This document shows, piece by piece, positions 2-58,593 of a stretch of 64,000 nt of DNA. Source of the stretch: a virus (lineage: Duplodnaviria; Caudoviricetes); the IMG/VR virus record IMGVR_UViG_3300043409_003130, positions 1-64,000 of that record, one strand, 5' to 3'. The notes beneath the pieces are model-generated. The model saw only the letters and a list, made by a program, of their open reading frames with translations, ran no database searches and had not been told where the DNA came from. The translations under genes and the position numbers were made by a program. Each line of letters opens with the position of its first letter. Position 1 is the stretch's first letter.

Positions 2-3000
2 ATAGCATTTACTAATATTGAAAATATAAAAGCTGAATTACCTAATATAATTGTTAAAACTACAACCGACTGGTCTAAAATTAATAGAATATGTAATTCA
101 AGCTCAATCCTTAATTCTCAATTAACCACTTCAACCATTTCTAACTATTTAAGTACAGCAACTTTAATATTAGAAGATAAAGAAGAAGTTCAAATCAATT
201 ATAATTCTATTGAACTTAGAAAAATTGTAAAACCTAAATTAGGTATTTTATCAATGTTTGAAATTAAAGATTTTAATTTTGAATACCATTCAACTCAATA
301 TTCTAAAATACCGGAAATTGATCTATATCAATACTATTATATACCTAAAGATATTGCTATTTTAGATTTTACTAAATATGTGTATAGAGCAATCGGTTCA
401 GGTATTTTTTTAATAAACGAAACCCAATATAATATATCAGTAGGGTCAACTCAATATATTTCACAAAGTATAGCAGGTTTACATAAATATTCTGTACTTT
501 CTGGAAATGTAATATTAATTCAAACCAATTTAATTCCTCAAAACCAGACAGCTCGACGCCTTGATATTGCAATATTAGATCAGGATCAAAACTTTCAAAA
601 TTTTACTGGATTTTTTGGATTTGGAGCAGACCACAGTGCCCCAGACCCAAATTCAGCAACTTATCAATATAAAGAAAAATTTAAACCTAATAATTTAATT
701 AGCGAATATGCTGCATATTTAGAGAATTATTCAACTGAATTTGCAAATGATAGTAAAATTATTCCATATATTTCAAAATGGGGAATCATTGACTCGACTG
801 ATGCTAGAGGTAATCCATACCGATTAAATTCCGATATTTTATTTGGAAAAGATAATTTTGGACCATCACATAGAGAAAAGTCACCAAATGCTGAAAAGTT
901 AACACACGAATGGTTTTATATTGAATCTGATTTTAACTATTCAAGTAATATTGACCTACTTAAACAAAATTATTACTATTTTAATTCTCCATTAGACATT
1001 AATTTATTAATTAGTGAGGCTTCTTATTTTGAAAAATATTTTACATATGTTCCAACTCTTGATAATATTGAAGTAGATTTTCCACAGTTTAGATATTCTA
1101 AATTAATGAATAACTCATTTAGTCGTCAATATAATACACTATTTAATGGAATACAATTTAGATTTTCAGAATTAGACAGTAGCGGCGTGGTTTCACCTGG
1201 AACTACCCGATTTGAAGACTATAATTTTAGTATTTTATTAAAACCTGTACCTGAGGATTTAAAAAATCCGCAATCTCCAATTAAATATAGAATTATTGAA
1301 AATATTAATGCAAAGTCAATATTAATATTGATTGAAGTTGCACTTAGTGATATTTCAAAAATTAGTAATGAATTATTGTCTATTCCAACCGATTCTGACT
1401 TTGCTCGGGATAGTCGAGTTGACCAGAGTAATATATTAACGGGTAATGGTCTCATCACTGAGGATCAGGTTAGTAGTTTTCAAATAGACACAATCGTTGA
1501 GGTAACTAGCGTTGAAATAATTAAAAAATTATTTCTTAATAATTACTATTTAGATTTAATAGAGGCATTTACCGGGGCAACCGTAACTGACTCAATAACC
1601 GGAGAGGTTATTGTTAATGATAGAGTTAATGGGCTATATGTACCAATTGCTGGCGAAACGGTTTTAGTTAAATATACAGACTCATATAATATTATTCTTG
1701 CATTTTCTGAAAGTAAATTATTTAATGAAATAAAGTCAGGTAATATTACAAACGGCTCAGTTAATAATGCAGATGCAAATCAAAAATTTAATACAAGTAA
1801 AATATTACCAGCCTACATATCTACTGGAATTAGCTCAGGCATATACGGGCCGTCTAATTTACCGTTACCTGAACCAAAAGCCACTATTAATGTAGTTAAA
1901 GTGGTTGACTATCGATCAGTGGCCTATCCACCTGTATTAACTGGATCAAACAAATTAGCACTAAATATCGTTAAAACTGCGCTATTATCAATATTTGGAG
2001 ATTATAGAATTTCATTTAATTCAAATGGTGTCTCTAATTTAACCTATGCCTTTTTGTATGCAGCAAAAGATAAAAAATATAATACAACGGCCTCTGCCTT
2101 TTCAACGGTTAAGCTTGCAGTTGGCGTTGATTTAAGTCCGGGATTAATTAATTTAACCAGCAATGGTTATGTTATACCTGGTGCTAATCTTAAAGATCTT
2201 CCAGAAAACTATTTTAAACTAGAGGAATTTATTAATCCAACGAGTGCAAGTCATTCAACTCTAACTAATCCAACCAACGGAGATATTGCACCATTACCTG
2301 CATTTTCTCCATTAATGTTTATTAATTCAGTTGGTGAAATTTCAATATTATTAAAAACCAGCGCAGAATTTAATAATAATTTAACAAATACCTCATTAGA
2401 TATTAGTCGATCTGGAACAACCACCCATGCACTTAAAACTGTAAATAACAATTTATTAATAATTGATTCGCCTACTGTTATTTATGATATATTAAGTGAA
2501 GTTATTCCATTTAGTACTACAACAACTAGCACAAGTACTACAACAACTACCACAAAGGCCGGAGCAACGACAACAACTACCACTCTAGCCGGCGGTGTAA
2601 CTACTACTACCACTACGGTTATTAGTCAATTAAATTTAGCAATTAACTATGTTGGACAAAGCGTAATAACTAAATCATTTACTCTTCCATCTAAATTTAA
2701 AATTGGAGATATTGTTAAAATATATGCTATTGCTCAACCGACTGTTCATTATTTAATTGGTGCGGTTACTTTGGTAACTGAGACAGTATCTAATAGTGGA
2801 AATTTTTATGCGCTTACTGTATTAGTTCGTAGTCAAACCACGGCAGCCACAACAACTGTTCCAGATTGGGGTATTACCTGTACTCAAAATATTATTGTAT
2901 TAAAGCCGGCAGTAGTTACCAATGGTTCTACTGGGGTTAACCAAATTATATTAAATAAATCAAATTTTCCAAGTGGATCATCCTCTGAATGGTTATTAAA

Positions 3001-4228
3001 TACCCAACAATTTCAACTATTTGGTGGTAAAAATTACTTCTCAAATTTATTTAAAAATCTATCATTTGCTAATTTTAGTGAATTATTATTAAATCAGACA
3101 GATTTAATTTCCTATGAATCTTATATGGATGGAACGCTTTTGCCTGGTAAACAAATACAAATATCAGTTGAGCAAGCTGAACTTGTTAACAAAAATACAA
3201 TTATTTCAACGAGTCCAGAGTTTGTTCAAACCTCAAGTCAACAATTAATGGGAGGAGTAATTCATAGTGAATCTCTTTCTATTCCATACGAGATTTTTAG
3301 ATATTCTGGCGAATATGATATTGTGTATAAACCGGTTTCGAGTTTTAAATTTAATTCTAAATTAGGCTCAACTGATTTATCTGCATCAAATACATTCTTT
3401 AATACTGAGATTAAAAATTTCTTTACTATACCTGAATTTTATTTAGTTAAATATGCAGAGTCTAAAATTTTAGATTTTGAAGATTCTCAATCGTATTTAC
3501 CAGTATATCCATTAATTAATGAGTCACCTATTGATAAAACCAGTTATAATGCCCTATCTAGTAGTTGGGATTTTAATTATCACCAGTTATATAACACTAA
3601 AAATACCTATTCTTTAATACCTGGAAGTAGAAGAATTACTGAAGACTATTCATTTGTTTCAAAACTTATTAATTTACCAATGAGTATTACGGCTGAATCA
3701 TTTAATGTAGTTGAATTACCTATTTTTAATTTTGAAATGAATGATGCTACTTTTAAACAGTTTAATCCAAATGGACAATTTGTTGATTTTATATATGCGA
3801 TATACCCAAATGAAATTAGATTTAAAATAAACTTTGAACTCTTAATTTCAAGAGCCCTAATTATAAATGGCTTAAGATACCAGTTTAATAGATTTTTTAT
3901 TGATGGAAATACAATATTAACTAATGATTCTTTAGTATTTGGAACCTTAACCCAAGAGCAATATCTTTTAGCCTATTGTAAAGATAATTTATCTAAATTA
4001 TATAAGTTAGGCCAGGCTGAATTTTATATAAAATCAAATGGCGGATTAAAAAATACCGTTAATTTTGCGCAAGTTTCCTATGCTAATTTAGCAAGTAATG
4101 GATACACATTAGACTTAAATAATATTCAAATAAATAACACAGGTTCCGCAATATTAACTGGCTCAATACCAGCCGGCCAAAGCACCGGATTTAGCGTAGT
4201 TCCAAAATTAAAAATTAACTATATTTAA
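2..4228 (+). CDS. Large putative virion structural protein, 5'-truncated by window edge
   Basis: Frame is open from position 2 (IAFTNIENIKAELP...), so the Met at 254 is internal. Contains Thr-run linkers (STTTTSTSTTTTTTK) and lies in the structural gene cluster. No catalytic motif recognised. Confidence 0.6.
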   Translation: MAFTNIENIKAELPNIIVKTTTDWSKINRICNSSSILNSQLTTSTISNYLSTATLILEDKEEVQINYNSIELRKIVKPKLGILSMFEIKDFNFEYHSTQYSKIPEIDLYQYYYIPKDIAILDFTKYVYRAIGSGIFLINETQYNISVGSTQYISQSIAGLHKYSVLSGNVILIQTNLIPQNQTARRLDIAILDQDQNFQNFTGFFGFGADHSAPDPNSATYQYKEKFKPNNLISEYAAYLENYSTEFANDSKIIPYISKWGIIDSTDARGNPYRLNSDILFGKDNFGPSHREKSPNAEKLTHEWFYIESDFNYSSNIDLLKQNYYYFNSPLDINLLISEASYFEKYFTYVPTLDNIEVDFPQFRYSKLMNNSFSRQYNTLFNGIQFRFSELDSSGVVSPGTTRFEDYNFSILLKPVPEDLKNPQSPIKYRIIENINAKSILILIEVALSDISKISNELLSIPTDSDFARDSRVDQSNILTGNGLITEDQVSSFQIDTIVEVTSVEIIKKLFLNNYYLDLIEAFTGATVTDSITGEVIVNDRVNGLYVPIAGETVLVKYTDSYNIILAFSESKLFNEIKSGNITNGSVNNADANQKFNTSKILPAYISTGISSGIYGPSNLPLPEPKATINVVKVVDYRSVAYPPVLTGSNKLALNIVKTALLSIFGDYRISFNSNGVSNLTYAFLYAAKDKKYNTTASAFSTVKLAVGVDLSPGLINLTSNGYVIPGANLKDLPENYFKLEEFINPTSASHSTLTNPTNGDIAPLPAFSPLMFINSVGEISILLKTSAEFNNNLTNTSLDISRSGTTTHALKTVNNNLLIIDSPTVIYDILSEVIPFSTTTTSTSTTTTTTKAGATTTTTTLAGGVTTTTTTVISQLNLAINYVGQSVITKSFTLPSKFKIGDIVKIYAIAQPTVHYLIGAVTLVTETVSNSGNFYALTVLVRSQTTAATTTVPDWGITCTQNIIVLKPAVVTNGSTGVNQIILNKSNFPSGSSSEWLLNTQQFQLFGGKNYFSNLFKNLSFANFSELLLNQTDLISYESYMDGTLLPGKQIQISVEQAELVNKNTIISTSPEFVQTSSQQLMGGVIHSESLSIPYEIFRYSGEYDIVYKPVSSFKFNSKLGSTDLSASNTFFNTEIKNFFTIPEFYLVKYAESKILDFEDSQSYLPVYPLINESPIDKTSYNALSSSWDFNYHQLYNTKNTYSLIPGSRRITEDYSFVSKLINLPMSITAESFNVVELPIFNFEMNDATFKQFNPNGQFVDFIYAIYPNEIRFKINFELLISRALIINGLRYQFNRFFIDGNTILTNDSLVFGTLTQEQYLLAYCKDNLSKLYKLGQAEFYIKSNGGLKNTVNFAQVSYANLASNGYTLDLNNIQINNTGSAILTGSIPAGQSTGFSVVPKLKINYI

Positions 4229-10950: not shown

Positions 10951-13900
10951 GTGGCAGTTCAAGTTAAACTTACCTCAGTTAAAAAATTAAGTTCAGTTAG
11001 TACAGCGGCAATGGTTGAACTATCTAACTTTAATTTTACACAAATTGCATCCGCCGTTAGAGAATTTTTAGTATCTATTAGTTATCAACAAGGAGTTGAT
11101 GCCGTATCCGTTGATATTAATACAATTTCAGCCGATACTTTAAATATTAGAAATGGACTTTCGGTATATGGTGCTCAATTAGAAAGTGGTAATTATCCAA
11201 AAGTTATTGAATTAGACCCAAGCGGCTCAATTATTTCTAAAAATATTATATTAGAAGATGTAGTTGATGCAAGGCGAGTTAGATTAAGAGTTTTTGGACT
11301 TTTACCAAGTGTAGGTATTCCTGGTGAACTGGTATATATTGGTACTCAACTTTCTAAATCTGAAGGAATTTACGTTTGGTTAAATTCAACCGGCTGGACC
11401 CTATTGGCTGGAGGAAATGGAGTTGCTAAGTGTATGCAAGAGGTTTCAATGACAGCCACCTCTAATGTTATTAGTGCAGATAATTCAGTTGTTTCTCCTC
11501 AAGGTTTATTTCTATTTCCAGCCCCGCTTGCTGCAACTGGTTTTTTACTATTTGTTAATGGCCATCAAATTACAGTAGGAAATTCGGACTTAACTGCCCC
11601 GGCCTATTTAAGTAAAGATGCTGGAGTCACTGCCTCTTCTTTTAATGAAGTTGATGTGACAGATCAATTATATTGGAATCCATCAGTTGCTGGATTTAAT
11701 TTAGATACTTCTGATACAATTACACTAAGGTATTTTACAGAAGATCCATATTGTTCGCAAACTGGCTATACTTGCATAACCGGAATTTCAAGCTCTTCTA
11801 CTACTACTTGGAATCAATTTACTATTCAAATAATTGGAACCCCAACTGAGCCCGGCCCAATTACTATTTGTAAAATACCTAATTTAACTACCGGCTCTGC
11901 CACTTTACCTACCGGATATTCATTAAGTAATACAATATTATCATATACAATATCTGATCCAACTGGAATCTATCCAACTGGAGCAATTATTAAATTTAAA
12001 GTACCTCAATCACTAAGTGAAGCCGAGTTTAATTTAATTAAAATATTTCATGAGGTTGATTCAGTACTCGTTGATGAAACCGTTAAGGTTGGAGATATTG
12101 TTGGAGATTTATATATTCCAAACTATGCAAGCCGATTAATTTATGCACAAGTAGATTCGTTTAGTCCATTTTATTTAATTCAAGGCCAGAGTATCACAAC
12201 TACTACAAGTTCAACAAGTACAACCACTACTCTTAACTTAACTACAACTACTACCTGTGCGCCTAATTTAATAAATTATTTAATACCTAGTGTATTAGCA
12301 CCAACGCAAATTACTTTTTATGGAACTCCGGCGGGTCCGTTCAATGTAGTATTTACCGATTCAGCCGGCGGAGTCCATGACTTAACCGGCATAACTGGCT
12401 CAATGATTAGATTAGGTTGGAATTTTAACTTAAATAATCCAAACTATTCAGGTATTCCATCTACTGTTGGAACATATATATTTACAAATTCATCAAATTG
12501 TTCTTATACAATTTCAGTACCAGTACCTGAGCTTAATACAACCACAACAACTACTCAAGCCTATGCAGGTGGAACTACCTCTACCTCTACCACAACGACA
12601 ACCACAGCTTCGTGTGCAAACTCATTAACTGCAACCCCTAATCCATTTAATAATCCAGCAACGATAACTTTTGTAGGCTCGCCGATCGGTCCATATTCAG
12701 TTATGTTTACTGAATTAGATAGTGGAATTCAATATTATTTGGGTGCAGGAATTAAAACTCCATGGGTATTTGATAGAAAAAATTACTACTTAGGCGCTAT
12801 TAATAGTTCATATGGAACCTATAAATTTATTTCGCCTATTTGTACTATTAATATACCTGTAATTAGAGCAACAACATCAACTAGTACAACCAGTACCTCA
12901 ACGAGCACTACAAGTACCTCAACGAGTACAACTAGTACTACAAGTACAACCACAGCAGCACCAACTAGTACCTCAACTACTACAAGTACAACTACTGCTG
13001 AGCCAACTACTACGAGTACTACAAGTACAACAACGGCTGAGCCAACTACTACGAGTACTACAAGTACAACAACGGCTGAGCCAACTACTACGAGTACTAC
13101 AAGTACAACAACGGCTGCTCCAACAAGTACAACCAGTACAACAACCGCTGCTCCGACTAGCACAAGTACAACCAGTACAACAACCATTGCATTCCAAACT
13201 CTAACTGGCTATGTTAATAATAATTCAACTAAATTCTGTGCAGCCAATGCAAATAGTGCATTTACAGTCTATACTGCAGCGGATTCAACGCTAGCCTCTG
13301 CCTATGCTAATAGTTCTCCAACTCGTGGTATTTTCTCAGATACTGCATTAACAACCCTAGCTGCTGCAGGTATTTACGGTAACTCAGATGGAGGAAGCGG
13401 AGTCATTTGGTATGATTGGAGTGGTGCAGCATTTACTGCGACTGGTACTTGTGCAGTCGGTTCAACTACTACTACTACTAGTACAACTGCTGCTCCAACT
13501 AGTACAAGTACTACAAGTACAACAACTATTGCATTCCAAACACTAACCGGCTATTCTAATAGTAATTCAACTAAATTCTGTGCAGGCGATGCAACAAATA
13601 CAGCGGTTACTGTCTATACAGCAACCCAAACAACATTAGCCGCTGCCTATGCTAATAGTGCTCAGATTTTCTCAGACACTACATTAACAACCTTAGCTGC
13701 TGCAGGTATTTACGGTAACTCAGATGGAGGCACTTGGTATACTTGGAATGGTACTGCATTTACCACAACTGGTACTTGCGCAGGCGGTTCAACTACTACA
13801 AGTACAACTACTGCTGATCCAACTACTACTAGTACTACAAGTACAACAACGGCTGAGCCAACTACTACGAGTACTACAAGTACAACAACGGCTGAGCCAA

Positions 13901-14397
13901 CGACTACCAGTACTACAAGTACAACAACCGCTGAGCCAACGACTACCAGTACAACAAGTACAACAACCGCTGAGCCAACGACTACCAGTACAACAAGTAC
14001 AACTACTGCTGAGCCAACGACTACCAGTACAACAAGTACAACTACTGCTGCAGCCTCACCAACTAGTACTACAACAACTACTGTAGCTCCAAATACATTT
14101 AATGTAACTGCGAGTGGTTCATCTGCTTATATAATAAATGGACAATCAAATCCAACACTAACACTATTTGAAGAACAAACTTATACATTTAATATAGCTG
14201 CAACTGGCCATCCATTTTGGATTAAACTCGTAAGCTCAACCGGTCCATACAATGAATATCCTGGTATAACTAATAACGGTACAGATAATGGATCAATATC
14301 ATTTACTGTGCCACCTGGTGCAGCTAGCGGCAGCCCTATTTATTATAATTGTGAAAATCATATTAGTATGGCAGGTACAATTAATATATCAGCGTAA
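10951..14397 (+). CDS. Mucin-like Thr/Ser/Pro-rich putative virion surface protein with C-terminal cupredoxin-like domain (GTG start)
   Basis: Contains (AEPTTTSTTSTTT)n arrays and a duplicated Cys-bounded domain. C-terminus GHPFWIK...YYNCENHISMAG has His/Cys/His/Met type-1 copper-like ligands. Confidence 0.65.
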   Translation: MAVQVKLTSVKKLSSVSTAAMVELSNFNFTQIASAVREFLVSISYQQGVDAVSVDINTISADTLNIRNGLSVYGAQLESGNYPKVIELDPSGSIISKNIILEDVVDARRVRLRVFGLLPSVGIPGELVYIGTQLSKSEGIYVWLNSTGWTLLAGGNGVAKCMQEVSMTATSNVISADNSVVSPQGLFLFPAPLAATGFLLFVNGHQITVGNSDLTAPAYLSKDAGVTASSFNEVDVTDQLYWNPSVAGFNLDTSDTITLRYFTEDPYCSQTGYTCITGISSSSTTTWNQFTIQIIGTPTEPGPITICKIPNLTTGSATLPTGYSLSNTILSYTISDPTGIYPTGAIIKFKVPQSLSEAEFNLIKIFHEVDSVLVDETVKVGDIVGDLYIPNYASRLIYAQVDSFSPFYLIQGQSITTTTSSTSTTTTLNLTTTTTCAPNLINYLIPSVLAPTQITFYGTPAGPFNVVFTDSAGGVHDLTGITGSMIRLGWNFNLNNPNYSGIPSTVGTYIFTNSSNCSYTISVPVPELNTTTTTTQAYAGGTTSTSTTTTTTASCANSLTATPNPFNNPATITFVGSPIGPYSVMFTELDSGIQYYLGAGIKTPWVFDRKNYYLGAINSSYGTYKFISPICTINIPVIRATTSTSTTSTSTSTTSTSTSTTSTTSTTTAAPTSTSTTTSTTTAEPTTTSTTSTTTAEPTTTSTTSTTTAEPTTTSTTSTTTAAPTSTTSTTTAAPTSTSTTSTTTIAFQTLTGYVNNNSTKFCAANANSAFTVYTAADSTLASAYANSSPTRGIFSDTALTTLAAAGIYGNSDGGSGVIWYDWSGAAFTATGTCAVGSTTTTTSTTAAPTSTSTTSTTTIAFQTLTGYSNSNSTKFCAGDATNTAVTVYTATQTTLAAAYANSAQIFSDTTLTTLAAAGIYGNSDGGTWYTWNGTAFTTTGTCAGGSTTTSTTTADPTTTSTTSTTTAEPTTTSTTSTTTAEPTTTSTTSTTTAEPTTTSTTSTTTAEPTTTSTTSTTTAEPTTTSTTSTTTAAASPTSTTTTTVAPNTFNVTASGSSAYIINGQSNPTLTLFEEQTYTFNIAATGHPFWIKLVSSTGPYNEYPGITNNGTDNGSISFTVPPGAASGSPIYYNCENHISMAGTINISA
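12997..13113 (+). repeat. 39-bp tandem repeat x3 (AEPTTTSTTSTTT)
   Basis: Unit gctgagccaactactacgagtactacaagtacaacaacg read directly from the sequence. Confidence 0.9.
13186..13782 (+). repeat. Internal duplication of an ~85-90 aa domain (IAFQTLTGY...TGTCA), copies starting at 13186 and 13528
   Basis: Both copies contain NSTKFCA, IFSDT.LTTLAAAGIYGNSDGG and AFT.TGTCA. Confidence 0.9.
13813..14046 (+). repeat. 39-bp tandem repeat x6 (A[D/E]PTTTSTTSTTT)
   Basis: Six consecutive 13-codon units read directly from the sequence. Confidence 0.9.
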
Positions 14398-14427: not shown

Positions 14428-15384
14428 ATGTTAACAAAGAAAATCGTATTTTTATCAGCTCAACCAGATGTGCCGTATTTTCATTGGCAAGTTGAGGTAA
14501 TGATTCATAATTTTATTAAACACGGAATTAATCCAAATTGGATTGAAATTCTATGGGCATACGATAATGAACCTTCTGTAGAACTATTATCATTAAGTGC
14601 AAAATATCCATATGTTAGATTTTTTAGCTATAAAAAAACCCCTATTGATAATTTTGGATATATTCCAATTCTGAGGCCTGATATTATTGAACAACACTTT
14701 ATTAAGTATCCAGAACTTAGAGGTGAAACTATTTTATATCATGATTCAGATATTATTTTTAGAGAATTACCAAATTTTGATGAAATGCACGGGGATCTTT
14801 ATTGGTATTTAAGCGATACAATTTCGTATATTGGTGCTGAATATATTAGATCAAAATCAAATGATCTATTTGTTGATATGTGTAATATTGTTGGAATTTT
14901 ACCAGAGGTGGTTGATCAAAATCAAAAAAATTCAGGCGGAGCCCAATATTTAATGAAAGGCGTAACCGCTAATTATTGGAAAGGTGTAAAAGATGATTCA
15001 CTAGCTCTTTACAAATATATGGTAGATCGAGAAAATTTAGAAAGAACCACCTTAACTCCAGAAGAATTACAGGTGTATAATCCTGTTCAAAAATGGTGTG
15101 CTGATATGTGGGCAGTTCTTTGGGGAGCTTGGAAATTAGGTGCACAAACGGTAATTGAGCCCGGCCTTTCATTTAGTTGGGGTAGTTCTAATTTAGCTGA
15201 ATATTTAAATAATAATATAATGCACAATGCTGGAATTACCTCAAATCAAGAAGGCAAGGTTTTTTATAAAGGAGAATTTATTAATAAGAATCCATTTGAA
15301 TTTGATTTTTCCAATATAGATCAGGATACTGCATCCGCTAAATATGTAGATGCAATTATTTATGCAAAAGAAATGAGGTCCTAA
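14428..15384 (+). CDS. GT-A glycosyltransferase resembling plant peptidyl-serine alpha-galactosyltransferase (SGT1, GT96) / hydroxyproline arabinosyltransferase (HPAT, GT95)
   Basis: Motif pairs with SGT1 as recalled: YFHWQ..MIHNF (YFDWQ..LMHSF), YIPILRP (YPAINKP), ILYHDSDIIFR with a DxD (VILDADMIIR), KWCADMWAVLWGA (GWISEMYGYSFGA). Confidence 0.7.
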   Translation: MLTKKIVFLSAQPDVPYFHWQVEVMIHNFIKHGINPNWIEILWAYDNEPSVELLSLSAKYPYVRFFSYKKTPIDNFGYIPILRPDIIEQHFIKYPELRGETILYHDSDIIFRELPNFDEMHGDLYWYLSDTISYIGAEYIRSKSNDLFVDMCNIVGILPEVVDQNQKNSGGAQYLMKGVTANYWKGVKDDSLALYKYMVDRENLERTTLTPEELQVYNPVQKWCADMWAVLWGAWKLGAQTVIEPGLSFSWGSSNLAEYLNNNIMHNAGITSNQEGKVFYKGEFINKNPFEFDFSNIDQDTASAKYVDAIIYAKEMRS

Positions 15385-15440
15385 TTTATTATCTAGGTTT
15401 TTGCTGATAAATAATATCAGAAGAAAAAACCTTTACCTAG

Positions 15441-17732
15441 ATGTCGAATAAGATTAAAATTAAACAAATTGACCTTGCCGGGGTTTCTCAAGATAATACT
15501 AAAACTAGATTTCTAGCAATAAATGATACTGGAACAGTAGTATATTGGAATGATTCTCCACAGGCTGGAACAAGTGGAACAGGTGGATCAGGCTCTAGTG
15601 GAACTTCTGGTACATCAGGTATAAGTGGTTCAAGTGGAATTTCTGGTTCTAGTGGAACTTCCGGTACATCAGGTATAAGTGGTTCAAGTGGAACTTCTGG
15701 TATGGATGGTTCAAGCGGCACATCTGGTACATCAGGCGTAAATGGTTCAAGCGGTTCTTCTGGAACTTCAGGTATAAGTGGTTCAAGTGGAACATCCGGA
15801 ACCGGCTCGTCAGTTGCAATACAGACAAGCGGAACTTCTGTTTTATCAAATACTCAAATAATAAATTTTGGTTCAGGCCTTACGGTTTCAACTTCTGGAA
15901 CATCAGGTCAAGTTGATGTAGCTGCCTCTGGTGGTTCAATTCAATTTTATGATGAAGGCGGGCTCGTTGGATCATATGCAAAGGTTAACTTTGTTGGAAC
16001 CAGTGTTTATGCAGCTGAAAAACCTGGAGACGCTTCAACAATCAACATCTATATTCCAACACCAACATATGCAAGTAATTATAATTCAACTTCTGGAACA
16101 AGTTCAGGCGCAGTTAGTGAAAGCGGAATTACTAGAAGAACTGTTCGAATTAGCTCTCCAACAACAGAAGGTTCTCCATATTATACTGGTGGAGGTTCAA
16201 ATTCACTGTGGGCTGCAACCTCTCAAGCCTCGGTAACACATACAACCTCTCAACCGACTGTTACTTTTTCAACAGCAAATGCGGTAACTGGAGTTGGTGG
16301 AAATTCAACGGTTAAAGTCGAAATGTTTAGCGGAGATGGAACCACCGTCCTTGCAACATATACAACTCCGTCAATCACTGCAAATGCGGTAAATACCTCT
16401 TCTTCGCCGAACGCCGGAATAACTGTAACTATTACTAATTATGCAGCAGACGGTTTAAAATATAAAGCCTCAATTGTAGCAGCGGTAAATGTTGGAACGG
16501 TATTTACGGCAGTTTCATTAAGCGGCGGCCGATATAATATTAAAGTAACACATACTACGGATACGGCAACTGACGGTGGAACTGAATATTCATATATTCA
16601 ACCTGGTGCTTTTTATGACTTAAATGGCTCTACTCCAAGTTTTGGAGGTGCATCGGTTGCTACCATTTCTGAATCAGGTACCTCAGGTAATATTTTAACA
16701 AAACACCTTAGTGGCGTTGAATATTATATTCTTGGTTCTAGATTTGTAGGCGCGGTTGATAAAATTAATAATTTAAATCAAAATACACAGGGCCGAGCAA
16801 ATGCCGCAAATACAAATTTTTCATTTACTGCAGCAAATTATGGAGTTACAGCACTTGCTGAATATTCATGGTCTCAAGGACCTGGTACATGGACTGGCTG
16901 GACCAATGCCTATGACAATACTGATGCCAGCTATTCCTATGCAAGTTGGGATGTTTCTACCTCAAATTATAGATATCGTGGAACTAGTGGAAGTGCCTCG
17001 GCTATATTATATGATCCATGGAGCAATAGTGCAACCAATACTTCAGCCAATACTTCAATACTAGTAGACTCATATTCAACCTCAGGTAATAGCACTCAAT
17101 ATATTGAGTATTTTAATGATGAACAGTGGAGATTAGCCTCAAACTATTCAACTGCATGGGATCCAACTGCTGCTTTATCAAATGGCGAAGCTTGTGTTGT
17201 TGGTGGAACCATCGTTAGACCAGATAGATTCTTTTTAACTGATCCAAGTACGGCAACTATTCAACCTAATCTTGCTGCGTATAAACCTGATAAAAATGGT
17301 ACAAATCCTAACTATACCGGTTTTTCAAATGATGCAAGTTTTTATAGGTTATTTTATACAACACTAAGTGCCTCAGTTACTCCAATTCCAAGCTTTTCAA
17401 TGGTATTTTCTGGAACCTTTGTTGGTACTGCACTAAGCGATTTACAAAATCAATATTTAAAAGTATTTGTTAGAAAAATTGGAGCAACATCCGGTAACTA
17501 TGGAACAGGTTCACCGCCTCTTCTACTACATGGTGCAGAATATGATAATGGTACATTTGTTGATGGAAGTACATCAGGTACTGATACTCCAGGAATTAGA
17601 TTAGGCTCTTCAAGTGGAGGTACAATTAATGGTACCTTTGGAGGATTTAATGCAACAAACGGAATATATGTTGAAATTAGAATTTGTAATAGTGGAATAA
17701 AAATTGATACAGTAACCGTTGCCTTTAATTAA
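15441..17732 (+). CDS. Putative virion structural protein with N-terminal G-[ST]-S repeats
   Basis: MSNKIKIKQI start, then roughly 27 GTS/GSS/GIS triplets and a Ser/Thr-rich beta-type body. Preceded by ATAAATA at 15407. Confidence 0.6.
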   Translation: MSNKIKIKQIDLAGVSQDNTKTRFLAINDTGTVVYWNDSPQAGTSGTGGSGSSGTSGTSGISGSSGISGSSGTSGTSGISGSSGTSGMDGSSGTSGTSGVNGSSGSSGTSGISGSSGTSGTGSSVAIQTSGTSVLSNTQIINFGSGLTVSTSGTSGQVDVAASGGSIQFYDEGGLVGSYAKVNFVGTSVYAAEKPGDASTINIYIPTPTYASNYNSTSGTSSGAVSESGITRRTVRISSPTTEGSPYYTGGGSNSLWAATSQASVTHTTSQPTVTFSTANAVTGVGGNSTVKVEMFSGDGTTVLATYTTPSITANAVNTSSSPNAGITVTITNYAADGLKYKASIVAAVNVGTVFTAVSLSGGRYNIKVTHTTDTATDGGTEYSYIQPGAFYDLNGSTPSFGGASVATISESGTSGNILTKHLSGVEYYILGSRFVGAVDKINNLNQNTQGRANAANTNFSFTAANYGVTALAEYSWSQGPGTWTGWTNAYDNTDASYSYASWDVSTSNYRYRGTSGSASAILYDPWSNSATNTSANTSILVDSYSTSGNSTQYIEYFNDEQWRLASNYSTAWDPTAALSNGEACVVGGTIVRPDRFFLTDPSTATIQPNLAAYKPDKNGTNPNYTGFSNDASFYRLFYTTLSASVTPIPSFSMVFSGTFVGTALSDLQNQYLKVFVRKIGATSGNYGTGSPPLLLHGAEYDNGTFVDGSTSGTDTPGIRLGSSSGGTINGTFGGFNATNGIYVEIRICNSGIKIDTVTVAFN

Positions 17733-17982: not shown

Positions 17983-20900
17983 ATGGCCGGATATACTGAT
18001 AGTGAAAGATTAAAACTAGTATTTAAAGTTCAAGCAGCAAACGTAATAGATGCTGCCTCTAATTTTAGTTGGTATGAGGCCAAATTTGCTTTTAATCCAA
18101 ATATTGCAGCAAATAGGGTATTAACTCAGTTTGCGACAATTAAAGCTAACCCAGTTGCAAATAAAGCAGCTGCTCTTGCTTTATTAGGCACCGGAAATCC
18201 ACTAGATGGAATAGTTGCAAATGCATATACTACTGGAATAAGATTAACTCAAGTTATATCTGGTAATAATACTACCTGGGTAGTAGCCGGTACCTATGGA
18301 GATATAACAACTCAAATACTTGATTGGATTCAACCTCAAAAGATTTTACAAACAAGCGGCTCACCATCAATCGGTTGGGCTATTGAATTTTGGAATGGTG
18401 ATCCTGCCAGCGGAGGTACCCAAATTACAACAACTGCTAATGCTGGTACTGAGGTAAGTTGGGTATTTAATTATGATAATGGTCTTTTATTATTATCAGA
18501 TTCAATGGTAACCTATTTAACTTCAACATATGGAACAATTAATCCATATATTCGTGGTTTTTATTATATTGGTGATACCCTTGCGGATAGTGTAGGTACG
18601 AGTGGAACATCTGGTACATCAGGTATTACTGGGTCAAGTGGAACTAGCGGCTCTTCTGGAACCTCAGGTTTAAGTGGAAGCTCTGGAACTTCAGGTTTAA
18701 GCGGAAGCTCAGGAACAGCAGGTTCGTCTGGAACATCTGGTTCAAGCGGTACTTCCGGTATAGATGGTTCAGCTGGAACCTCAGGTTCAAGTGGAAGCTC
18801 TGGAACCTCAGGTTCAAGTGGAAGCTCTGGAACATCTGGTATAGACGGTTCTTCTGGAACTTCAGGTTCAAGCGGTAGCTCTGGTTCTTCAGGTTCAAGC
18901 GGAACTTCAGGTTCTGATGGTTCAAGTGGTAGCTCTGGTTCTTCTGGTTCAAGTGGAACCTCAGGATCAAGCGGTTCAAGTGGTAGTTCAGGTTCAAGCG
19001 GAACTTCTGGTTCTAGTGGAACGGCCGGTTCGAGTGGAACTTCTGGTATTTCAGGAATAAACGGAACGTCTGGTTCTAACGGTACTTCTGGTACAGCCGG
19101 TTCAAGTGGAACTTCTGGTTCGTCTGGAACTTCTGGGTCTAATGGTTCTAGTGGAACTTCTGGTTCTAATGGTTCAAGTGGAACAAGTGGTATAAATGGA
19201 TCAAGCGGTACTTCTGGTATTTCCGGTATAAATGGAACATCTGGTTCAAGCGGAACTTCTGGTTCATCTGGAACCTCTGGGTCTAATGGTTCAAGCGGAA
19301 CTTCCGGTACTTCTGGTTCTAGTGGAACGGCCGGTTCTAGTGGAACAAGTGGTATAAATGGTTCTTCCGGAACTTCAGGTATATCAGGAATAAATGGAGC
19401 AGCAGGTTCAAATGGAACTTCTGGTACATCAGGTTCTGACGGTTCAAGTGGTAGTTCGGGTATTTCTGGTTCAAGTGGTTCTTCCGGTTCAGATGGTTCA
19501 AGCGGTAGTTCAGGAACATCTGGTTCAAGTGGTACTTCTGGTATAAATGGTTCTTCCGGAACTTCCGGTATTTCTGGTATAAATGGAACATCAGGTTCAA
19601 GTGGAATAAGCGGTAGTTCAGGTTCAAGTGGAACAAGTGGAATTTCTGGAACTTCTGGTTCTAGTGGAATTTCTGGTTCTTCAGGTTCAAGTGGTTCTTC
19701 TGGTTCTTCAGGTTCAAGTGGTTCTTCTGGTTCAAGCGGTAGCTCAGGAACATCAGGTTCAGATGGTTCAAGCGGAACTTCTGGTACAGCTGGAACATCA
19801 GGTTCAAGTGGTACGTCTGGTATAAATGGTTCAAGCGGAACAAGTGGTATAAATGGTTCAAGCGGAACTTCTGGTATTTCAGGAATAAATGGAACATCAG
19901 GTTCAAGTGGAATAAGTGGTAGCTCAGGAACTTCCGGTTCAAGCGGTAGCTCAGGTATTTCAGGTTCAAGCGGTACTTCTGGAATTGACGGTTCATCTGG
20001 AACTTCAGGTTCAAGTGGAATAAGCGGTAGCTCTGGTTCTTCTGGTTCAAGTGGAACCTCAGGATCAAGCGGTTCAAGTGGTGAATCTGGTTCAAGCGGA
20101 ACTTCTGGTTCTTCTGGTACATCAGGTTCAAGTGGAACAAGCGGTATAAATGGTTCAAGTGGCACTTCTGGTATTTCTGGTATAAACGGTACTTCAGGTT
20201 CAAGCGGAATAAGTGGTAGCTCAGGAACATCAGGAATAAGTGGTAGCTCAGGAACTTCAGGGGTAAACGGTACCTCCGGTACATCAGGTTCAAGCGGTAT
20301 AGACGGTTCAAGTGGTACTTCAGGAACGGCTGGTTCTTCTGGTACGGCTGGTTCGAGCGGTAGTTCTGGTTCTTCCGGTTCAAGCGGTTCATCTGGTTCA
20401 AGTGGAACTTCTGGTTCTTCTGGTTCAAGTGGTAGCTCGGGTATTTCAGGTTCAAGTGGAACTTCTGGTATATCCGGTATAAATGGAACGTCTGGTTCAA
20501 GTGGAACTTCTGGTATATCGGGATCAAGTGGAACTTCTGGTATATCAGGATCAAGTGGAACTTCTGGTATTTCAGGTTCAAGCGGTAGTTCTGGTTCTTC
20601 GGGAATAGACGGTTCAAGTGGAACTTCCGGTTCAAGTGGTAGCTCTGGTACTTCAGGTTCAAGCGGTATATCCGGTTCTTCAGGTACATCCGGTACAGCT
20701 GGAACATCTGGTTCAGACGGTTCTTCTGGTACATCAGGTTCAAGTGGAACATCCGGTATAAATGGTTCTTCTGGAACATCGGGTATTTCTGGTATAAATG
20801 GAACATCAGGTTCAAGTGGTACATCCGGTTCAAGTGGTATTTCAGGTTCAAGTGGTACTTCAGGAATAAGCGGTAGCTCCGGTACATCTGGTATATCCGG

Positions 20901-23900
20901 TTCAAGCGGTAGTTCAGGTTCTGATGGTTCAAGTGGTAGCTCAGGAACTTCAGGTATATCCGGTTCTAGTGGAACTTCTGGTTCTTCAGGAATAGACGGT
21001 TCAAGTGGAACATCAGGTTCAAGCGGCAGTTCCGGAACATCAGGTTCAAGTGGTACGTCTGGTATAAACGGTTCAAGTGGAACTTCAGGTATTTCTGGAA
21101 TAAACGGTACTTCAGGTTCAAGTGGAACATCCGGAATAAGTGGTAGCTCGGGAACTTCCGGTTCAAGTGGAACTTCTGGTTTAGCTGGTTCTAGTGGAAC
21201 TTCTGGTTTAGCTGGTTCTAGTGGAACATCTGGTTCAGATGGTTCAAGTGGAACATCCGGAATAAGTGGTAGTTCAGGAACGTCCGGTTCAGATGGTTCT
21301 TCTGGAACATCAGGTTCTTCAGGTTCAAGTGGTACATCTGGTTCTTCAGGTTCAAGTGGTGCATCTGGCTCAAGTGGTAGTTCTGGAACATCCGGTATAA
21401 ATGGTTCTTCTGGAACTTCTGGTATTTCAGGAATAAATGGTACGGCCGGTTCTTCTGGTTCAAGCGGTACATCAGGTATAAATGGCTCAAGTGGAACTTC
21501 TGGATCTAGTGGTATAGGCGGTTCAAGCGGTACATCTGGTTCAAGTGGAACTTCAGGCTTTGATGGGTCATCTGGTTCAAGTGGAACCTCTGGTATATCA
21601 GGTTCAAGTGGAACATCTGGTTCAAGCGGAACCTCAGGATCAAGCGGTTCAAGTGGTGAATCTGGTTCAAGCGGAACTTCTGGTTCAAGCGGTTCTAGTG
21701 GAACTTCTGGTTCAAGCGGAACAAGTGGTATAAACGGTTCAAGCGGTACATCCGGTATTTCTGGAGTAAATGGAACTTCCGGTTCAAGTGGAACTTCAGG
21801 TAGTTCAGGCTCTAGCGGAACTTCTGGTTCAAGCGGTGAATCTGGTTCTTCCGGTTCAAGTGGAACTTCTGGATCAAGTGGAATAGACGGGTCTTCTGGT
21901 ACATCAGGTTCAAGCGGCACATCTGGTTCTTCAGGCTCAAGCGGTAGCTCAGGAACTTCTGGTACATCAGGTGCATCAGGTTCAAGTGGAACAAGTGGTA
22001 GCTCAGGTTCAAGTGGAACTTCCGGTTCTTCAGGTTCAAGTGGAACTTCGGGTATAAACGGTTCAAGCGGTACTTCAGGTATTTCTGGAATAAATGGTAC
22101 ATCAGGGTCAAGTGGAATAAGTGGTAGCTCTGGTTCAAGCGGTAGCTCAGGAACTTCAGGCTCAAACGGTACTTCAGGAACAGCCGGGTCAGATGGTTCA
22201 AGCGGAACTTCTGGTTCTAGTGGAACATCTGGTATAAACGGTTCAAGTGGAACTTCTGGTTCTTCTGGATCAAGTGGAACAGCTGGATCTTCAGGAACCT
22301 CTGGTTCTTCAGGAACTTCAGGTTCAAGTGGAACTTCTGGTTCTTCAGGTTCAAGTGGAACTTCTGGTTCTTCTGGTTCAAGCGGAACCTCTGGTATAAA
22401 TGGTTCAAGTGGAACTTCTGGTATTTCTGGAGTAAATGGAACTTCTGGTTCAAGTGGAATTTCCGGTTCTTCTGGAACATCAGGAATAAGTGGAAGCTCA
22501 GGAACTTCCGGTTCTGACGGTTCAAGCGGTAGTTCAGGGTCAAGTGGTGCTTCGGGTTCTTCTGGTTCAAGCGGCACTTCTGGTTTGGACGGTTCAAGCG
22601 GTAGTTCAGGCTCTAGTGGAACTTCTGGTTCTTCTGGTTCAAGCGGTGAATCTGGTTCTTCTGGTACATCAGGTTCAAGCGGTTCAAGCGGTTCTAGTGG
22701 AACAAGTGGTATAAATGGTTCAAGTGGAACGTCCGGTATTTCTGGTATAAATGGAACATCAGGTTCAAGTGGAATTTCCGGCTCAAGTGGAACTTCTGGT
22801 ATTTCAGGTTCAAGTGGTAGTTCAGGAACTTCTGGATCAAGCGGAACTTCTGGTATTTCAGGTTCAAGCGGAACATCTGGTTCCGATGGATCTAGTGGTA
22901 GTTCAGGTATTTCTGGTTCAAGTGGGACTTCTGGTTCTTCTGGAACTTCCGGTTCAAGTGGAACTTCTGGTTCTTCTGGTTCAAGTGGAACCTCTGGTTC
23001 TAGTGGTAGTTCTGGTTCTTCAGGTTCAAGTGGTACTTCTGGTATAAACGGTTCAAGTGGAACGTCAGGTATTTCTGGAATAAACGGTACTTCAGGATCA
23101 AGCGGAATAAGTGGTAGTTCAGGTTCAAGTGGAACATCGGGTTCAAGCGGTACATCTGGTTCAAGCGGGTCAAGCGGAACTTCTGGTTTAGCTGGATCAA
23201 GTGGAACATCTGGTTCAGATGGCTCAAGTGGAACATCAGGAATAAGTGGAAGCTCAGGAACTTCAGGTTCAGATGGTTCAAGCGGTAGTTCTGGTTCTTC
23301 AGGTTCAAGTGGAACTTCTGGTTCTTCTGGTTCAAGCGGAACCTCTGGTTCTAGTGGTAGTTCGGGAACATCTGGTATAAATGGTTCTAGTGGAACATCT
23401 GGTATTTCAGGAATAAATGGTACATCCGGTTCTTCAGGTTCAAGCGGTACATCTGGTATAAATGGTTCAAGTGGAACCTCTGGTTCTTCTGGTTCAAGTG
23501 GTGAATCTGGTTCTTCCGGTTCAAGCGGAACTTCTGGATCAAGTGGAATAGACGGGTCTTCTGGGACGTCAGGTTCAAGCGGTAGTTCTGGTTCTTCAGG
23601 TTCAAGTGGTAGCTCAGGAACTTCTGGTTCAAGTGGAATTTCAGGATCAAGCGGTAGTTCTGGTTCTTCAGGTTCAAGTGGTACCTCTGGTATAAATGGT
23701 TCTTCTGGAACATCAGGTATTTCTGGAGTAAATGGTACATCTGGTTCAAGCGGAACCTCAGGAATAAGCGGTAGCTCAGGAACTTCTGGTATATCAGGTT
23801 CAAGTGGTAGCTCAGGAACTTCTGGAACATCAGGTTCAAGTGGGACTTCAGGTTCTTCTGGAACTTCAGGTTCAAGTGGAACTTCCGGTAATGATGGTTC

Positions 23901-26900
23901 TTCCGGTTCAAGCGGAACTTCTGGTATTTCAGGTTCAAGCGGTTCAAGTGGAACTTCTGGCTTAAGCGGTAGTTCAGGAACTTCTGGTATAAATGGTTCT
24001 TCTGGAACTTCCGGTTCAAGTGGAACTTCAGGTATTTCAGGAATAAACGGAACATCAGGTTCTAGTGGAACTTCAGGTATAAATGGTTCAAGCGGAACTT
24101 CAGGTTTAAATGGTTCTTCTGGAACCTCTGGCCTAAGTGGTAGTTCAGGAACTTCAGGTTCAAGCGGTACATCCGGTTCAAGTGGTACATCTGGTATAAA
24201 TGGATCAAGTGGTACATCTGGTTCAAGTGGGACTTCGGGTTCTTCCGGTTCAAGTGGAACTTCTGGAACATCAGGTTCAAGTGGGACTTCAGGTTCAAGT
24301 GGTACATCTGGTTCTTCAGGTTCAAGCGGAACTTCTGGTTTAAATGGTTCAAGTGGAACATCTGGTATAAATGGTACTTCTGGTTCAAGCGGTACTTCTG
24401 GATCAAGTGGAACATCTGGTTCTAGTGGTAGCTCAGGAACTTCAGGTTCAAGCGGATTAAGCGGAGTAAATGGAATAGACGGTTCAAGTGGAACTTCTGG
24501 TATAAATGGTTCAAGTGGAACATCTGGTTCTTCTGGATCAAGCGGAACTTCTGGGTCTAGCGGAACTTCAGGTTCTAGTGGGTCTAGTGGAACATCTGGT
24601 TCTTCTGGATCAAGCGGAACATCTGGTTCTAGTGGTAGTTCAGGAACTTCAGGTATAAATGGTAGTTCAGGAACTTCGGGTATAAATGGTTCAAGTGGAA
24701 CTTCAGGCTCAAGTGGAACTTCGGGTTCAAGTGGTTCTAGTGGAACTTCAGGTTCAAGTGGTTCTAGTGGAACGTCTGGTTCTTCTGGAACATCTGGGTC
24801 TAGTGGAACATCTGGAACTTCTGGTTCTAGTGGTACTTCTGGATCAAGCGGAACTTCTGGTATTTCAGGAATAAATGGTACTTCAGGTTCAAGCGGTATT
24901 TCAGGTTCAAGTGGAACTTCTGGAATATCTGGAACTTCAGGTTCAAGTGGTAGTTCAGGCTCTAGTGGAACTTCTGGTATTTCAGGTTCAAGTGGAACTT
25001 CTGGTTCAAGCGGTAGTTCAGGTTCAAGCGGAACGTCTGGTTCTTCAGGTTCAAGCGGTAGTTCAGGAATATCTGGTTCTTCTGGAACTTCTGGTTCAAG
25101 TGGTTCAAGCGGTTCATCTGGTACATCAGGTTCAAGTGGTACTTCTGGTATTTCAGGAATAAATGGTACATCTGGTACATCTGGTGCAACTGGTTCAAAC
25201 GGTTCTTCTGGAACTTCAGGTTCAAGTGGTAGCTCAGGTACATCAGGTTCAAGTGGTAGTTCAGGTTCAAGCGGAACTTCTGGTTCTAGCGGTAGTTCTG
25301 GAACATCAGGTATAAATGGTTCAAGCGGTAGCTCTGGAACTTCTGGAAATTCAGGTTCAAGTGGGACTTCGGGTTCTTCAGGCTCAAGCGGTAGTTCAGG
25401 TTCTTCAGGTTCAAGTGGTAGTTCTGGAACATCAGGCGTATCAGGTTCAAGTGGAACATCTGGAATATCTGGAACTTCTGGTTCAAGTGGTAGCTCAGGT
25501 ACATCAGGTTCAAGTGGTAGTTCAGGTTCAAGTGGAACTTCTGGTTCAAGTGGAACTTCTGGTTCTTCAGGTTCAAGTGGTAGTTCTGGAACATCAGGTT
25601 TAAGCGGTTCAAGTGGTACTTCTGGTATTTCTGGAGTAAATGGAACTTCTGGTACTTCTGGTGCAAATGGTTCAAGCGGAACCTCTGGTTCAAATGGTTC
25701 AAGCGGTACTTCTGGTAATTCAGGTTCTAGCGGGTCAAGTGGAACTTCCGGTAACTCAGGTTCAAGTGGTACGTCTGGCTTAAACGGTGCAAATGGTTCA
25801 AGCGGAACTTCAGGTTCAAGCGGAACTTCTGGTTCTTCAGGCTCAAGCGGTAGTTCAGGTTCTTCAGGTTCTAGTGGTAGTTCAGGAACTTCCGGTTCTT
25901 CAGGTTCGTCAGGTTCAAGTGGAACTTCTGGTATAAATGGTTCAAGCGGAACCTCTGGTACGTCAGGTGCAACTGGGTCAAATGGCTCTAGTGGAACATC
26001 AGGTTCAAGCGGTAGCTCTGGAACATCAGGCTCTTCTGGTTCAAGTGGAACAAGCGGCAGCTCAGGTTCAAGCGGTAGTTCAGGAACATCAGGCTCAAGC
26101 GGTTCAAGTGGAACTTCTGGTATTAGTGGCAGTTCAGGTACTTCAGGTATTTCTGGAGTAAATGGAACTTCTGGTACATCAGGCGGAACTGGTTCAAACG
26201 GTTCAAGTGGAACTTCAGGTTCTTCAGGTTCTAGCGGTACGTCCGGTGCAACTGGTTCAAACGGTTTAAATGGTTCAAGTGGAACTTCAGGTTCTTCAGG
26301 TTCTAGTGGTGCAACCGGCTCAAACGGTTCTTCTGGAACTTCAGGTTCTAGTGGATCAAGCGGTTCAACTGGTTCAAATGGTTCTTCTGGAACTTCAGGT
26401 TCTAGCGGTACTTCTGTTGCTGTTTCTGGAACAAATAATACCCTTGTTAAATTTACATCTTCTTCAACTGTTGGTAATTCAACAATAACGGATGATGGAA
26501 CTAATATAAAAGCGACAACAACTTCATTAGTCGCTGGATATGACCCAACTCCATTAGCTGGAACCATACGAGACGGGGTAACATCAGTGCTAGGTGATTT
26601 AAATTCATGGAATAGTAATTTCTATCAAGGAACTGTATTATATTCAGAAACAGCAGGAGCAACAATTACCTTTGGTCAATTATGTTATAGAACACAAAAC
26701 GAAACTTGGGAATTAGCTGATGCAACAGCAATTGCATCCGCAGCAACTAACATGTTAGGCATTTGTGTTAAATCTTCAACTTCAACTAATCCAACTTCCA
26801 TACTAATTAATGGGTTTGTTGAAACTGCTACTTATGCAGCTATTTTAAAATCTGGAGAACCTTTGTATATGGCTATAACTGCAGGCAGTATGACTAAAAC

Positions 26901-33686: not shown

Positions 33687-33693
33687 ATTCCCG

Positions 33694-58567: not shown

Positions 58568-58593
58568 AAAAAGCCGCATTAGCGGCTTTTTTT
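58568..58593. terminator. Bidirectional intrinsic terminator
   Basis: AAAAAGCCGC-ATTA-GCGGCTTTTTTT between convergent genes. Confidence 0.85.

Follow-up and report, generated by a model that had tools for sequence, protein, structure and literature searches.

The 64,000-base stretch of viral DNA analysed here (the window; positions 1 to 64,000 of the 82,525-base IMG/VR virus record IMGVR_UViG_3300043409_003130) carries at 14428..15384 (+) a gene for a soluble glycosyltransferase of 318 amino acids (aa), which starts with ATG and belongs to the phage protein family phrog_4417. In our judgement this enzyme is probably a protein O-glycosyltransferase that initiates glycan addition on Thr/Ser-rich tracts in proteins of the phage itself. 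What carries this reading is the GT-A fold of the modelled structure, conserved motifs of catalytic type, the lack of a membrane anchor, and a recurrent pairing of the gene with poly-Ser/Thr tracts, both across phages and in bacterial peptide clusters.

The original prediction had picked out four strings in the translation as motifs of the plant-type transferases SGT1 and HPAT. All four are present, in the order given: YFHWQVEVMIHNF (residues 17-29), YIPILRP (78-84), HDSDIIFR (105-112) and WCADMWAVLWGA (223-234). Since they coincide with positions that do not vary among 32 aligned, diverse relatives reaching down to 31% identity (W20 and Q21; Y78, R83 and P84; H105, D106, D108 and F111; W223, D226 and W228), they are true family motifs and not chance strings. 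Their likeness to SGT1 and HPAT was not confirmed. Also invariant in the same relatives are Q173 (in G-G-A-Q), H266 and G269 (in H-N-A-G) and K281. The DxD metal and nucleotide-sugar motif, H105-D106-S107-D108 (14740..14751, +), comes directly after a beta-strand at residues 101-104 of the model, and a position after a central strand is the usual one for a DxD in GT-A enzymes. Near the C-terminus lies the His motif H266-N-A-G269 (15223..15234, +), and by a parallel with GT8 enzymes H266 is a candidate third metal ligand.

The AlphaFold2 model, made from an alignment of 38 sequences, has a predicted local distance difference test score (pLDDT) of 94.4 and a predicted template modelling score (pTM) of 0.91, and it is compact and globular from residue 7. 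There is no membrane helix or signal anchor in the model or in the translation. Residues 7-13 form the first beta-strand, and the sole N-terminal hydrophobic run, IVFLSA, is six residues long. The globular model and the absent hydrophobic helix thus bear out the earlier statement that the protein lacks a signal anchor. The enzyme is soluble, and a soluble enzyme would be cytoplasmic. The fold is the Rossmann-like alpha/beta/alpha arrangement common to solved GT-A enzymes, and judged by the model the protein is a GT-A-fold glycosyltransferase. The top structural match is the Skp1 alpha-galactosyltransferase AgtA (GT77, 6mw8), at 10% identity. Matches in the PDB to enzymes of the GT8 clade, which includes retaining enzymes that act on proteins (glycogenin, GlyE of the pneumococcal serine-rich-repeat pathway and the catalytic domain of the GT24 enzyme UGGT), have sequence identities of 6-13%, and with Foldseek, at 8-13% identity, the TM-scores are only 0.40-0.48, and therefore the enzyme represents a separate family within the GT8-like group. 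The viral structure library holds as close matches only an uncharacterised phage protein (69% identity) and Orf49 of Lactobacillus phage LP65 (TM 0.70), followed by giant-virus GT8-like enzymes. The GT8-like group works by a retaining mechanism. We infer that the enzyme is metal dependent and uses a nucleotide sugar, and that it probably retains configuration.

By sequence, the protein matches no Pfam family at E<=1, no NCBIfam family, and no PDB sequence better than E 0.28. The Pfam model Glyco_transf_8 is matched neither by the enzyme (E<=1) nor by the 32 relatives (E<=10). Over its full length it matches phrog_4417, a family of phage proteins with no assigned function (E 8.1e-63 and 213.2 bits, with residues 8-312 aligned to profile positions 3-290 of 293). 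The family is large and unannotated, and it lacks a Pfam model. A profile search of 1.84 billion representatives returned 1025 clusters, defined at 50% identity, at E<=0.001 (827 at 1e-10 and 584 at 1e-30), the best 150 of the 1025 matches being available for inspection. A word-indexed search returned 2804 proteins at E<=0.001, and none of the best 120 of these has a Pfam domain. At least 568 IMG/VR stretches encode a relative, and 77 of 50,697 GenBank phage records contain a full-length one at 22-40% identity. The hosts of these phages are mostly Lactobacillus, Enterococcus, Staphylococcus, Lactococcus and Clostridium, with one Chryseobacterium phage. None of the 60 rows listed for the 77 records uses the name glycosyltransferase; the names given are "hypothetical protein", "prophage pi2 protein 34", "lpxB motif", "Orf45" and "unknown". 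One additional row is named "major tail protein", which we take as a mislabel because in Enterococcus phage phiFL1A the tail protein is the adjacent gene. A search from the most divergent phage homologue, LP65 orf49 (21.6% identity), found only four relatives, all without a Pfam family. A literature search, which did not extend to supplements, found no paper on the enzyme family; a search combining HPAT, bacteriophage and glycosyltransferase gave nothing relevant by title or abstract, and polythreonine or poly-threonine appeared in none of the phage papers listed.

The pairing with poly-Ser/Thr tracts was examined in 88 loci, comprising the window, 80 from IMG/VR, two phage-type loci from genome collections and five GenBank phages. 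Any stretch of 12 residues with at least 10 Ser/Thr was counted as a tract. Of the 88 loci, 75 have tracts, and these are concentrated beside the enzyme: 73 of 174 open reading frames (ORFs) adjacent to the enzyme gene bear one, compared to 13 of 269 lying three or more genes away. When the loci are collapsed into lineages by enzyme identity, there is a tract within one gene in 9 of 15 lineages at 60% identity and within two genes in 10 of 15; at 80% identity the figures are 31/42 and 34/42. An earlier, cruder count of ORFs with a 60-residue span of at least 50% Ser/Thr gave 47/77 for the upstream neighbour, 16/76 for the downstream neighbour and 12/183 for background. The pairing of enzyme and tract is statistically strong and recurs in unrelated phages. 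Since it recurs in many of them, the enzyme probably glycosylates the phage's own proteins.

In the window the partner is the gene directly upstream, at 10951..14397 (+), which ends 30 bases before the enzyme gene. The mucin-like gene that had been described there is indeed present. It encodes a modular Thr/Ser-rich protein of 1148 aa (23% Thr, 12% Ser) with 22 runs of four or more Ser/Thr, the longest of 28. Its 15 poly-Ser/Thr tracts, 225 aa in total, lie at 12187..14052 (+) and consist mostly of 13-residue PTTTSTTSTTTAE repeats between globular modules; in the DNA they are seen as tandem repeats of period 39 at 12927-13184 and 13794-14055. Thr makes up about 60% of the tract residues, and Pro occurs once in every 13. 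Only two of the 72 ORFs in the record have any tract, and 15 of the 16 tracts are in this gene. The one other, PFSTTTTSTSTTTTTTKA (2507..2560, +), is inside a large ORF at 2..4228. The 1148-aa protein has no Pfam or PHROG family, and related phages also encode its orthologues upstream of the enzyme. From its place among the fibre genes, which is the sole argument, we infer that it is a virion component, and it is the most likely acceptor substrate. Thr within the Thr-rich tracts is the more likely acceptor residue, rather than an extensin-type Ser or hydroxyproline (Hyp). As a separate matter, the C-terminal 109 aa of this protein (14068-14394, +) hold ..GHPFW.. and ..YYNCENHISMAG... A cupredoxin-like site (His...Cys-x2-His-x2-Met, as in small blue copper proteins) was picked out there by eye and is unsupported, and a PDB sequence search with the 109 aa gave nothing better than E 0.38.

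Five of the 77 matching records of cultured phages were examined. In Enterococcus phage phiFL1A, the homologue gp51 is directly after the major tail protein gp50 and before the tail chaperones and the tape measure; the C-terminus of gp50 is TTTTTSTTTTTTSSTTTTTTT, and that of gp45, which is encoded in the head gene block, is TTTTTKPTTTTTKPTTTTTTT. The arrangement in Lactococcus phage 1706 is similar, with the homologue orf14 directly after orf13, the major tail protein, whose last ten residues are Thr; orf10 ends in KPKTTTTTTTT. A tail protein of Enterococcus phage VPE25, five genes from the homologue, ends in TTTDTTTTTTTTTT. Chryseobacterium phage MA9V-3 has pure Ser/Thr runs in two proteins upstream of its homologue, and in LP65 the nearby repeats are only of the Thr-x type.

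The proposed mechanism is as follows. The soluble, metal-dependent and probably retaining enzyme would act in the cytoplasm of the infected cell, where it would transfer the first sugar from a nucleotide sugar onto Thr (and Ser) of the unstructured PTTTSTTSTTTAE-type linkers in the 1148-aa protein. The product of ORF 2..4228, the record's one other tract-bearing protein, is a possible further target. Other transferases, such as the GT4/heptosyltransferase-like fusion encoded at 28401-30725, may extend or complement the glycan. The resulting sugar coat would leave the linkers of a surface-exposed fibre stiffer and better protected.

Several observations weigh against this proposal. The loci are not independent, as 63 of the 88 are in the window's own lineage, and therefore the lineage counts are the fairer figures. 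In 5 of the 15 lineages, all single-member, there is no tract within two genes under the strict definition (L002, which is VPE25; L238, which is LP65; L100, L109 and L117), and three close relatives of the window enzyme (L067, L069 and L073) have neighbours with only about 10% Ser/Thr. A GT8-like fold is equally typical of transferases for lipopolysaccharide and polysaccharide. The evidence of expression is a weak hint only. Metatranscriptome contigs from three coded studies lie over the enzyme gene at 14482-14689, 14446-14673, 15239-15378 and 15167-15317, and one more from an RNA library (15377-15527) spans its junction with the next gene, all with 0-7 differences. These contigs cover parts of the gene in three of four runs and could stem from DNA carry-over; they leave the stretch partly uncovered, and their depth is unfit for ranking genes.

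A different acceptor is suggested by the genes downstream. Starting 56 bases after the enzyme gene, 15441..17732 (+) encodes a 763-aa fibre-like protein with a collagen-like stretch of Gly-Ser-Ser and Gly-Thr-Ser, which matches Pfam Collagen (E 1.1e-09), phrog_31482 and several tail-fibre PHROGs. It is followed at 17983..27018 (+) by a collagen-like tail-fibre protein of 3011 aa (40% Ser, 30% Gly by composition of the ORF), which consists of nearly nothing but such triplets and whose C-terminal 305 aa match tail-fibre PHROGs (best E 1.4e-20). BclA of Bacillus, a glycosylated collagen-like exosporium protein, is a model for fibres of this kind serving as the main acceptor in place of the Thr-rich linker protein. 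Neighbours with at least eight Gly-X-Y within two genes are found at 28 of the 88 loci, all within the window's lineage (44% of its 63 members), and none are found in the other 14 lineages. Tracts, at 75/88 loci, extend over 10 of 15 lineages, and therefore the Ser/Thr tract is the family-wide partner. We regard the collagen-like fibres as unlikely main acceptors, although both are possible extra ones.

Less likely again is that the enzyme, as a transferase of GT8 type, serves to alter the cell surface during infection by acting on lipopolysaccharide, capsule or some other polysaccharide of the host envelope, and sits among fibre genes incidentally. The fold would suit such a role. This reading leaves unexplained why homologues in small siphophages are repeatedly placed directly after capsid or tail-tube genes with poly-Thr ends, why tracts are enriched beside the gene, and why the bacterial branch of the family, described below, is in exported-peptide clusters. 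The enzyme also lacks a membrane segment, and the scan of window ORFs showed neither flippase nor lipid-carrier genes. Glycosylation of modified bases in phage DNA to evade restriction is the classic role of phage glycosyltransferases and comes in many enzyme types (bioRxiv 10.1101/2023.12.21.572611; PMC12619734). For this enzyme it is very improbable. The gene is in the tail and fibre module rather than a replication module, the ORFs scanned include none recognisable as a gene of hydroxymethylase type, homologues in bacteria are in peptide-export clusters, and small temperate siphophages carry the gene between tail genes.

Since the original prediction placed the enzyme with the plant families GT95 and GT96, we asked whether that homology can be detected. 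It was not borne out: PF23452, the Pfam model of the plant and green-algal HPAT1-3 enzymes, matched none of 125 family members (0/32 at E<=10, 0/3 phage homologues at E<=1 and 0/90 representatives at E<=0.001), and PF23741 gave no match in the same three sets. PF23452 has no match to the window protein at E<=1 (cut-off 23.9 bits) and none in the whole record at E<=10, and PF23741 has none in the record; the HMMER filters hide most matches above E 0.1, and a very weak likeness to PF23452 is thus possible. PF23452 is also lacking from the precomputed Pfam columns of all 201 listed matches, and neither it nor a plant SGT1 was found in 77 longer fused relatives. Searches of 301 Bacteroidota genomes, 401 Pseudomonadota genomes and 30 virus records did not turn it up, with control genomes equally silent, and five genomes behind the examined loci gave sub-threshold scraps only, the controls being silent there too. 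A degenerate DNA pattern for a short HPAT-like motif was tried on viral contigs and discarded; it gave mostly out-of-frame matches in a repeated element, and the four longest in-frame ORFs from that scan comprise one DUF2827 protein and three without a significant family.

The only positive sign of kinship comes from an ESM Atlas feature search. Past the protein's own kind, PF23452 occurs in 11 of the 30 nearest clusters and DUF7164 in 4; among the 30 nearest named clusters, PF23452 occurs in 22 and DUF7164 in 6, and none is listed as a GT8 set. The scores are 0.96 with 207 of 256 features shared, in a language-model list that has neither alignment nor E-value, and in the best PF23452 cluster only 58% of the members carry PF23452. 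The original prediction had named GT8 enzymes as the best structural hits as a finding that would speak against it. Such hits are what we obtained, with no PDB row named GT95 or GT96, so formally that outcome occurred, but it has little weight. HPATs are themselves described as related to GT8 (passage in PMC4908140), and GT95 as related to SGT1's GT96 (passage in PMC8012813). A GT8-like fold is therefore expected of a GT95/96 relative and cannot decide the kinship. The membrane anchor that is a hallmark of GT95/96 is absent from the enzyme. A Pfam scan of 36 window ORFs, many of which have no family at all, revealed no 2-oxoglutarate oxygenase family or prolyl hydroxylase. We consider a specific kinship of the enzyme with GT95/96 doubtful.

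The plant and green-algal HPAT1-3 (GT95) and the peptidyl-serine alpha-galactosyltransferase SGT1 (GT96) do resemble the window enzyme in proposed role, being initiating peptide O-glycosyltransferases. They are described as membrane-anchored proteins of the Golgi (type II) or endoplasmic reticulum (PMC8012813, PMC4908140), in contrast to the soluble window enzyme. They act on Hyp or on a Ser next to it, whereas the tracts in the window are about 60% Thr. AgtA, the closest structural match, lengthens an existing glycan on one hydroxyproline of Skp1 and, unlike the window enzyme, has no Thr-tract context. Polypeptide GalNAc-transferases (GT27) are retaining, metal-dependent GT-A enzymes that add the first sugar to Thr/Ser of Pro/Thr/Ser tandem repeats, and they are Golgi membrane proteins with a lectin domain. 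We use this mucin-type system as a working analogy only, as no sequence link or specific fold link to it was seen. Among phages, the comparison is with mycobacteriophages, in which phage-encoded transferases place glycans on the C-termini of capsid and tail-tube subunits (as summarised in PMC12619734, citing Freeman et al. 2023, Cell Host Microbe). The homologues of phiFL1A, 1706 and VPE25 are likewise beside capsid or tail-tube genes with C-terminal poly-Thr ends, and from the genes alone the family shows the mycobacteriophage-type pattern of a transferase gene beside structural genes with Ser/Thr-rich stretches. Unlike those systems, the window enzyme is from an unannotated family, and its presumed acceptor is a long modular linker protein, not the C-terminus of a capsid or tail-tube subunit.

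The family also has a bacterial branch. A scan of one genome per species found 31 loci with the enzyme domain. Three of them stand apart: L004 is on a 254-kb contig binned with a Bacteroidetes genome and shares the window's gene order (amidoligase, Ser/Thr-rich protein, enzyme, fibre genes); the 1.4-kb contig L005 has no neighbouring genes; and L019 is a phage-type contig in which the gene directly upstream encodes an 809-aa protein with 38% Ser/Thr. The other 28 are from Pedobacter, Chitinophaga, Mucilaginibacter, Sphingobacterium, Dyadobacter, Spirosoma and other Bacteroidota, and the contigs are in most cases large and chromosomal. At most of these 28 loci the domain forms the N-terminal half of a protein of 505-829 aa, whose C-terminal half, where Pfam recognises it, is a second transferase domain (Glyco_transf_7C, GT2). 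Within 6 kb there is a C39-peptidase ABC exporter in 21 of the 28, a LanC-like protein in 19 and an HlyD-like protein in 12. At 13 of the 28 there are also genes for small peptides, one to three per locus, that have a double-glycine leader (e.g. ...LTRSQLKNVLGG) and a Cys-rich core, and Pfam confirms examples. Most of the cores open with a short Ser/Thr cluster after the cleavage site, such as SAVSTT, SSTPTT, NNSVTT or FNLDTSST. The layout is bacteriocin-like, that of an exported and modified peptide, and it fits a Ser/Thr-glycosylating enzyme.

SunS (GT2) is the glycosyltransferase of a glycocin-type bacteriocin. As in glycocins, the Bacteroidota transferase is beside a double-glycine-leader, Cys-rich peptide and a C39-peptidase ABC exporter; unlike glycocins, the enzyme family is a different one, and the clusters add the LanC-like protein and the fused second GT domain. 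No lanthipeptide dehydratase was noticed in the clusters, although no dedicated search was made. To judge by their gene content, the clusters appear to make exported peptides of an undescribed class, glycosylated and perhaps thioether-bridged. Fusion partners in the 77 longer relatives are GT7C, GT2, GT6, PF04488, a methyltransferase and, once, radical-SAM/SPASM; the 683-aa relative P0279 is fused to radical-SAM/SPASM domains, which are typical of peptide maturases. A second GT domain is recognisable in 13 of 90 family representatives. Two other fused relatives, P0306 and P0310, have a poly-Thr linker inside the enzyme, e.g. NRTSTTSTTSTTTTTTTTTNSE, and may therefore modify themselves.

According to PMC12619734, glycosylated phage particles have been shown so far only for mycobacteriophages. 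If the proposed function is correct, glycosylation of virion proteins would be widespread, given at least 568 IMG/VR contigs, 77 cultured phage records and 1025 clusters. Among the carriers are phages of Enterococcus, Lactococcus, Lactobacillus and Staphylococcus that therapy and dairy research make use of, and a sugar coat on capsids, tails and fibres would have consequences for how antibodies recognise the phage and for its stability, adhesion and host range. Protein glyco-engineering could also draw on a soluble enzyme whose acceptor tag is simply poly-Thr, and the bacterial branch would point to an unstudied class of probably glycosylated Bacteroidota peptides. A wider speculation, which we hold only tentatively, is that the large superfamily is the prokaryotic and viral sister of plant GT95/GT96 and runs a general "poly-threonine tag" glycosylation in tailed phages and Bacteroidota. 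It would then coat capsids, tails and fibres of phages of both Gram-positive and Gram-negative hosts, as well as the exported Cys-rich peptides of Bacteroidota, and plant extensin-type O-glycosylation would share its root with the phage and bacterial system.

The enzyme gene is part of a co-oriented block of large fibre-type genes. No plus-strand terminator-like site is present between the 1148-aa, enzyme and 763-aa genes, and promoter-like sites are not in excess (30 found, 38 expected from shuffled sequence). Directly upstream of the Thr-rich gene, 9552-10904 (+) encodes a protein of 450 aa that has an Amidoligase_2 domain (above cut-off, E 1.5e-05) and could be a further protein-modifying enzyme of the fibre module. 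The order of amidoligase and Thr-rich gene is retained in L004. Opposite the 3011-aa ORF, 18564-26567 (-) is open for 2667 aa of Pro-Glu-Val-Pro-Leu-Glu repeats; this is most likely a shadow of the collagen-like repeat and no gene. Just after the giant collagen-like gene and a Gly-rich protein comes a two-domain glycosyltransferase of 774 aa (28401..30725, +), for which Pfam gives Glyco_transf_9 and Glycos_transf_1. Its N-terminal half is GT4-like (phrog_2170, Glycos_transf_1), and its C-terminal half (residues 405-770) matches TIGR04414, the Aah/TibC-type autotransporter O-heptosyltransferase family, at E 2.4e-81 and 273.6 bits against a curated cut-off of 200. By this match it would be a second type of cytoplasmic protein O-glycosyltransferase in the fibre module and is a possible partner in protein glycosylation. 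Farther along are an FkbM-type methyltransferase (52081-52881, +, E 9.4e-12) and a YheC/D-type ATP-grasp enzyme (58579-59706, -, E 1.1e-55), both of families frequently linked to sugar or peptide modification.

The window phage is a large tailed phage. The phage-type genes recognised in the window are those for the large terminase, a baseplate wedge protein, PhoH and DNA ligase, and a T4 gp15-like tail-sheath stabiliser is encoded as well. CheckV puts the completeness of the record, of which the window is a part, at about 30%. Near-identical DNA is found in freshwater metagenomes, in 18 DNA runs of 14 coded studies, with at least 28% of the sampled words in each. ARAGORN predicts a transfer-messenger RNA (tmRNA) gene at 33693-34075 (-), with the tag peptide DNNITFWSLVNQVNTPATEELLLAA. 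Outside the window, at 75756-77624 (+) of the same record, there is a 622-aa ORF starting MGKIIGIDLGTTNS, which by eye we take to resemble a DnaK/Hsp70 chaperone. Large freshwater Bacteroidota phages with DnaK genes are described under the name "moraphages" in PMC12619734.

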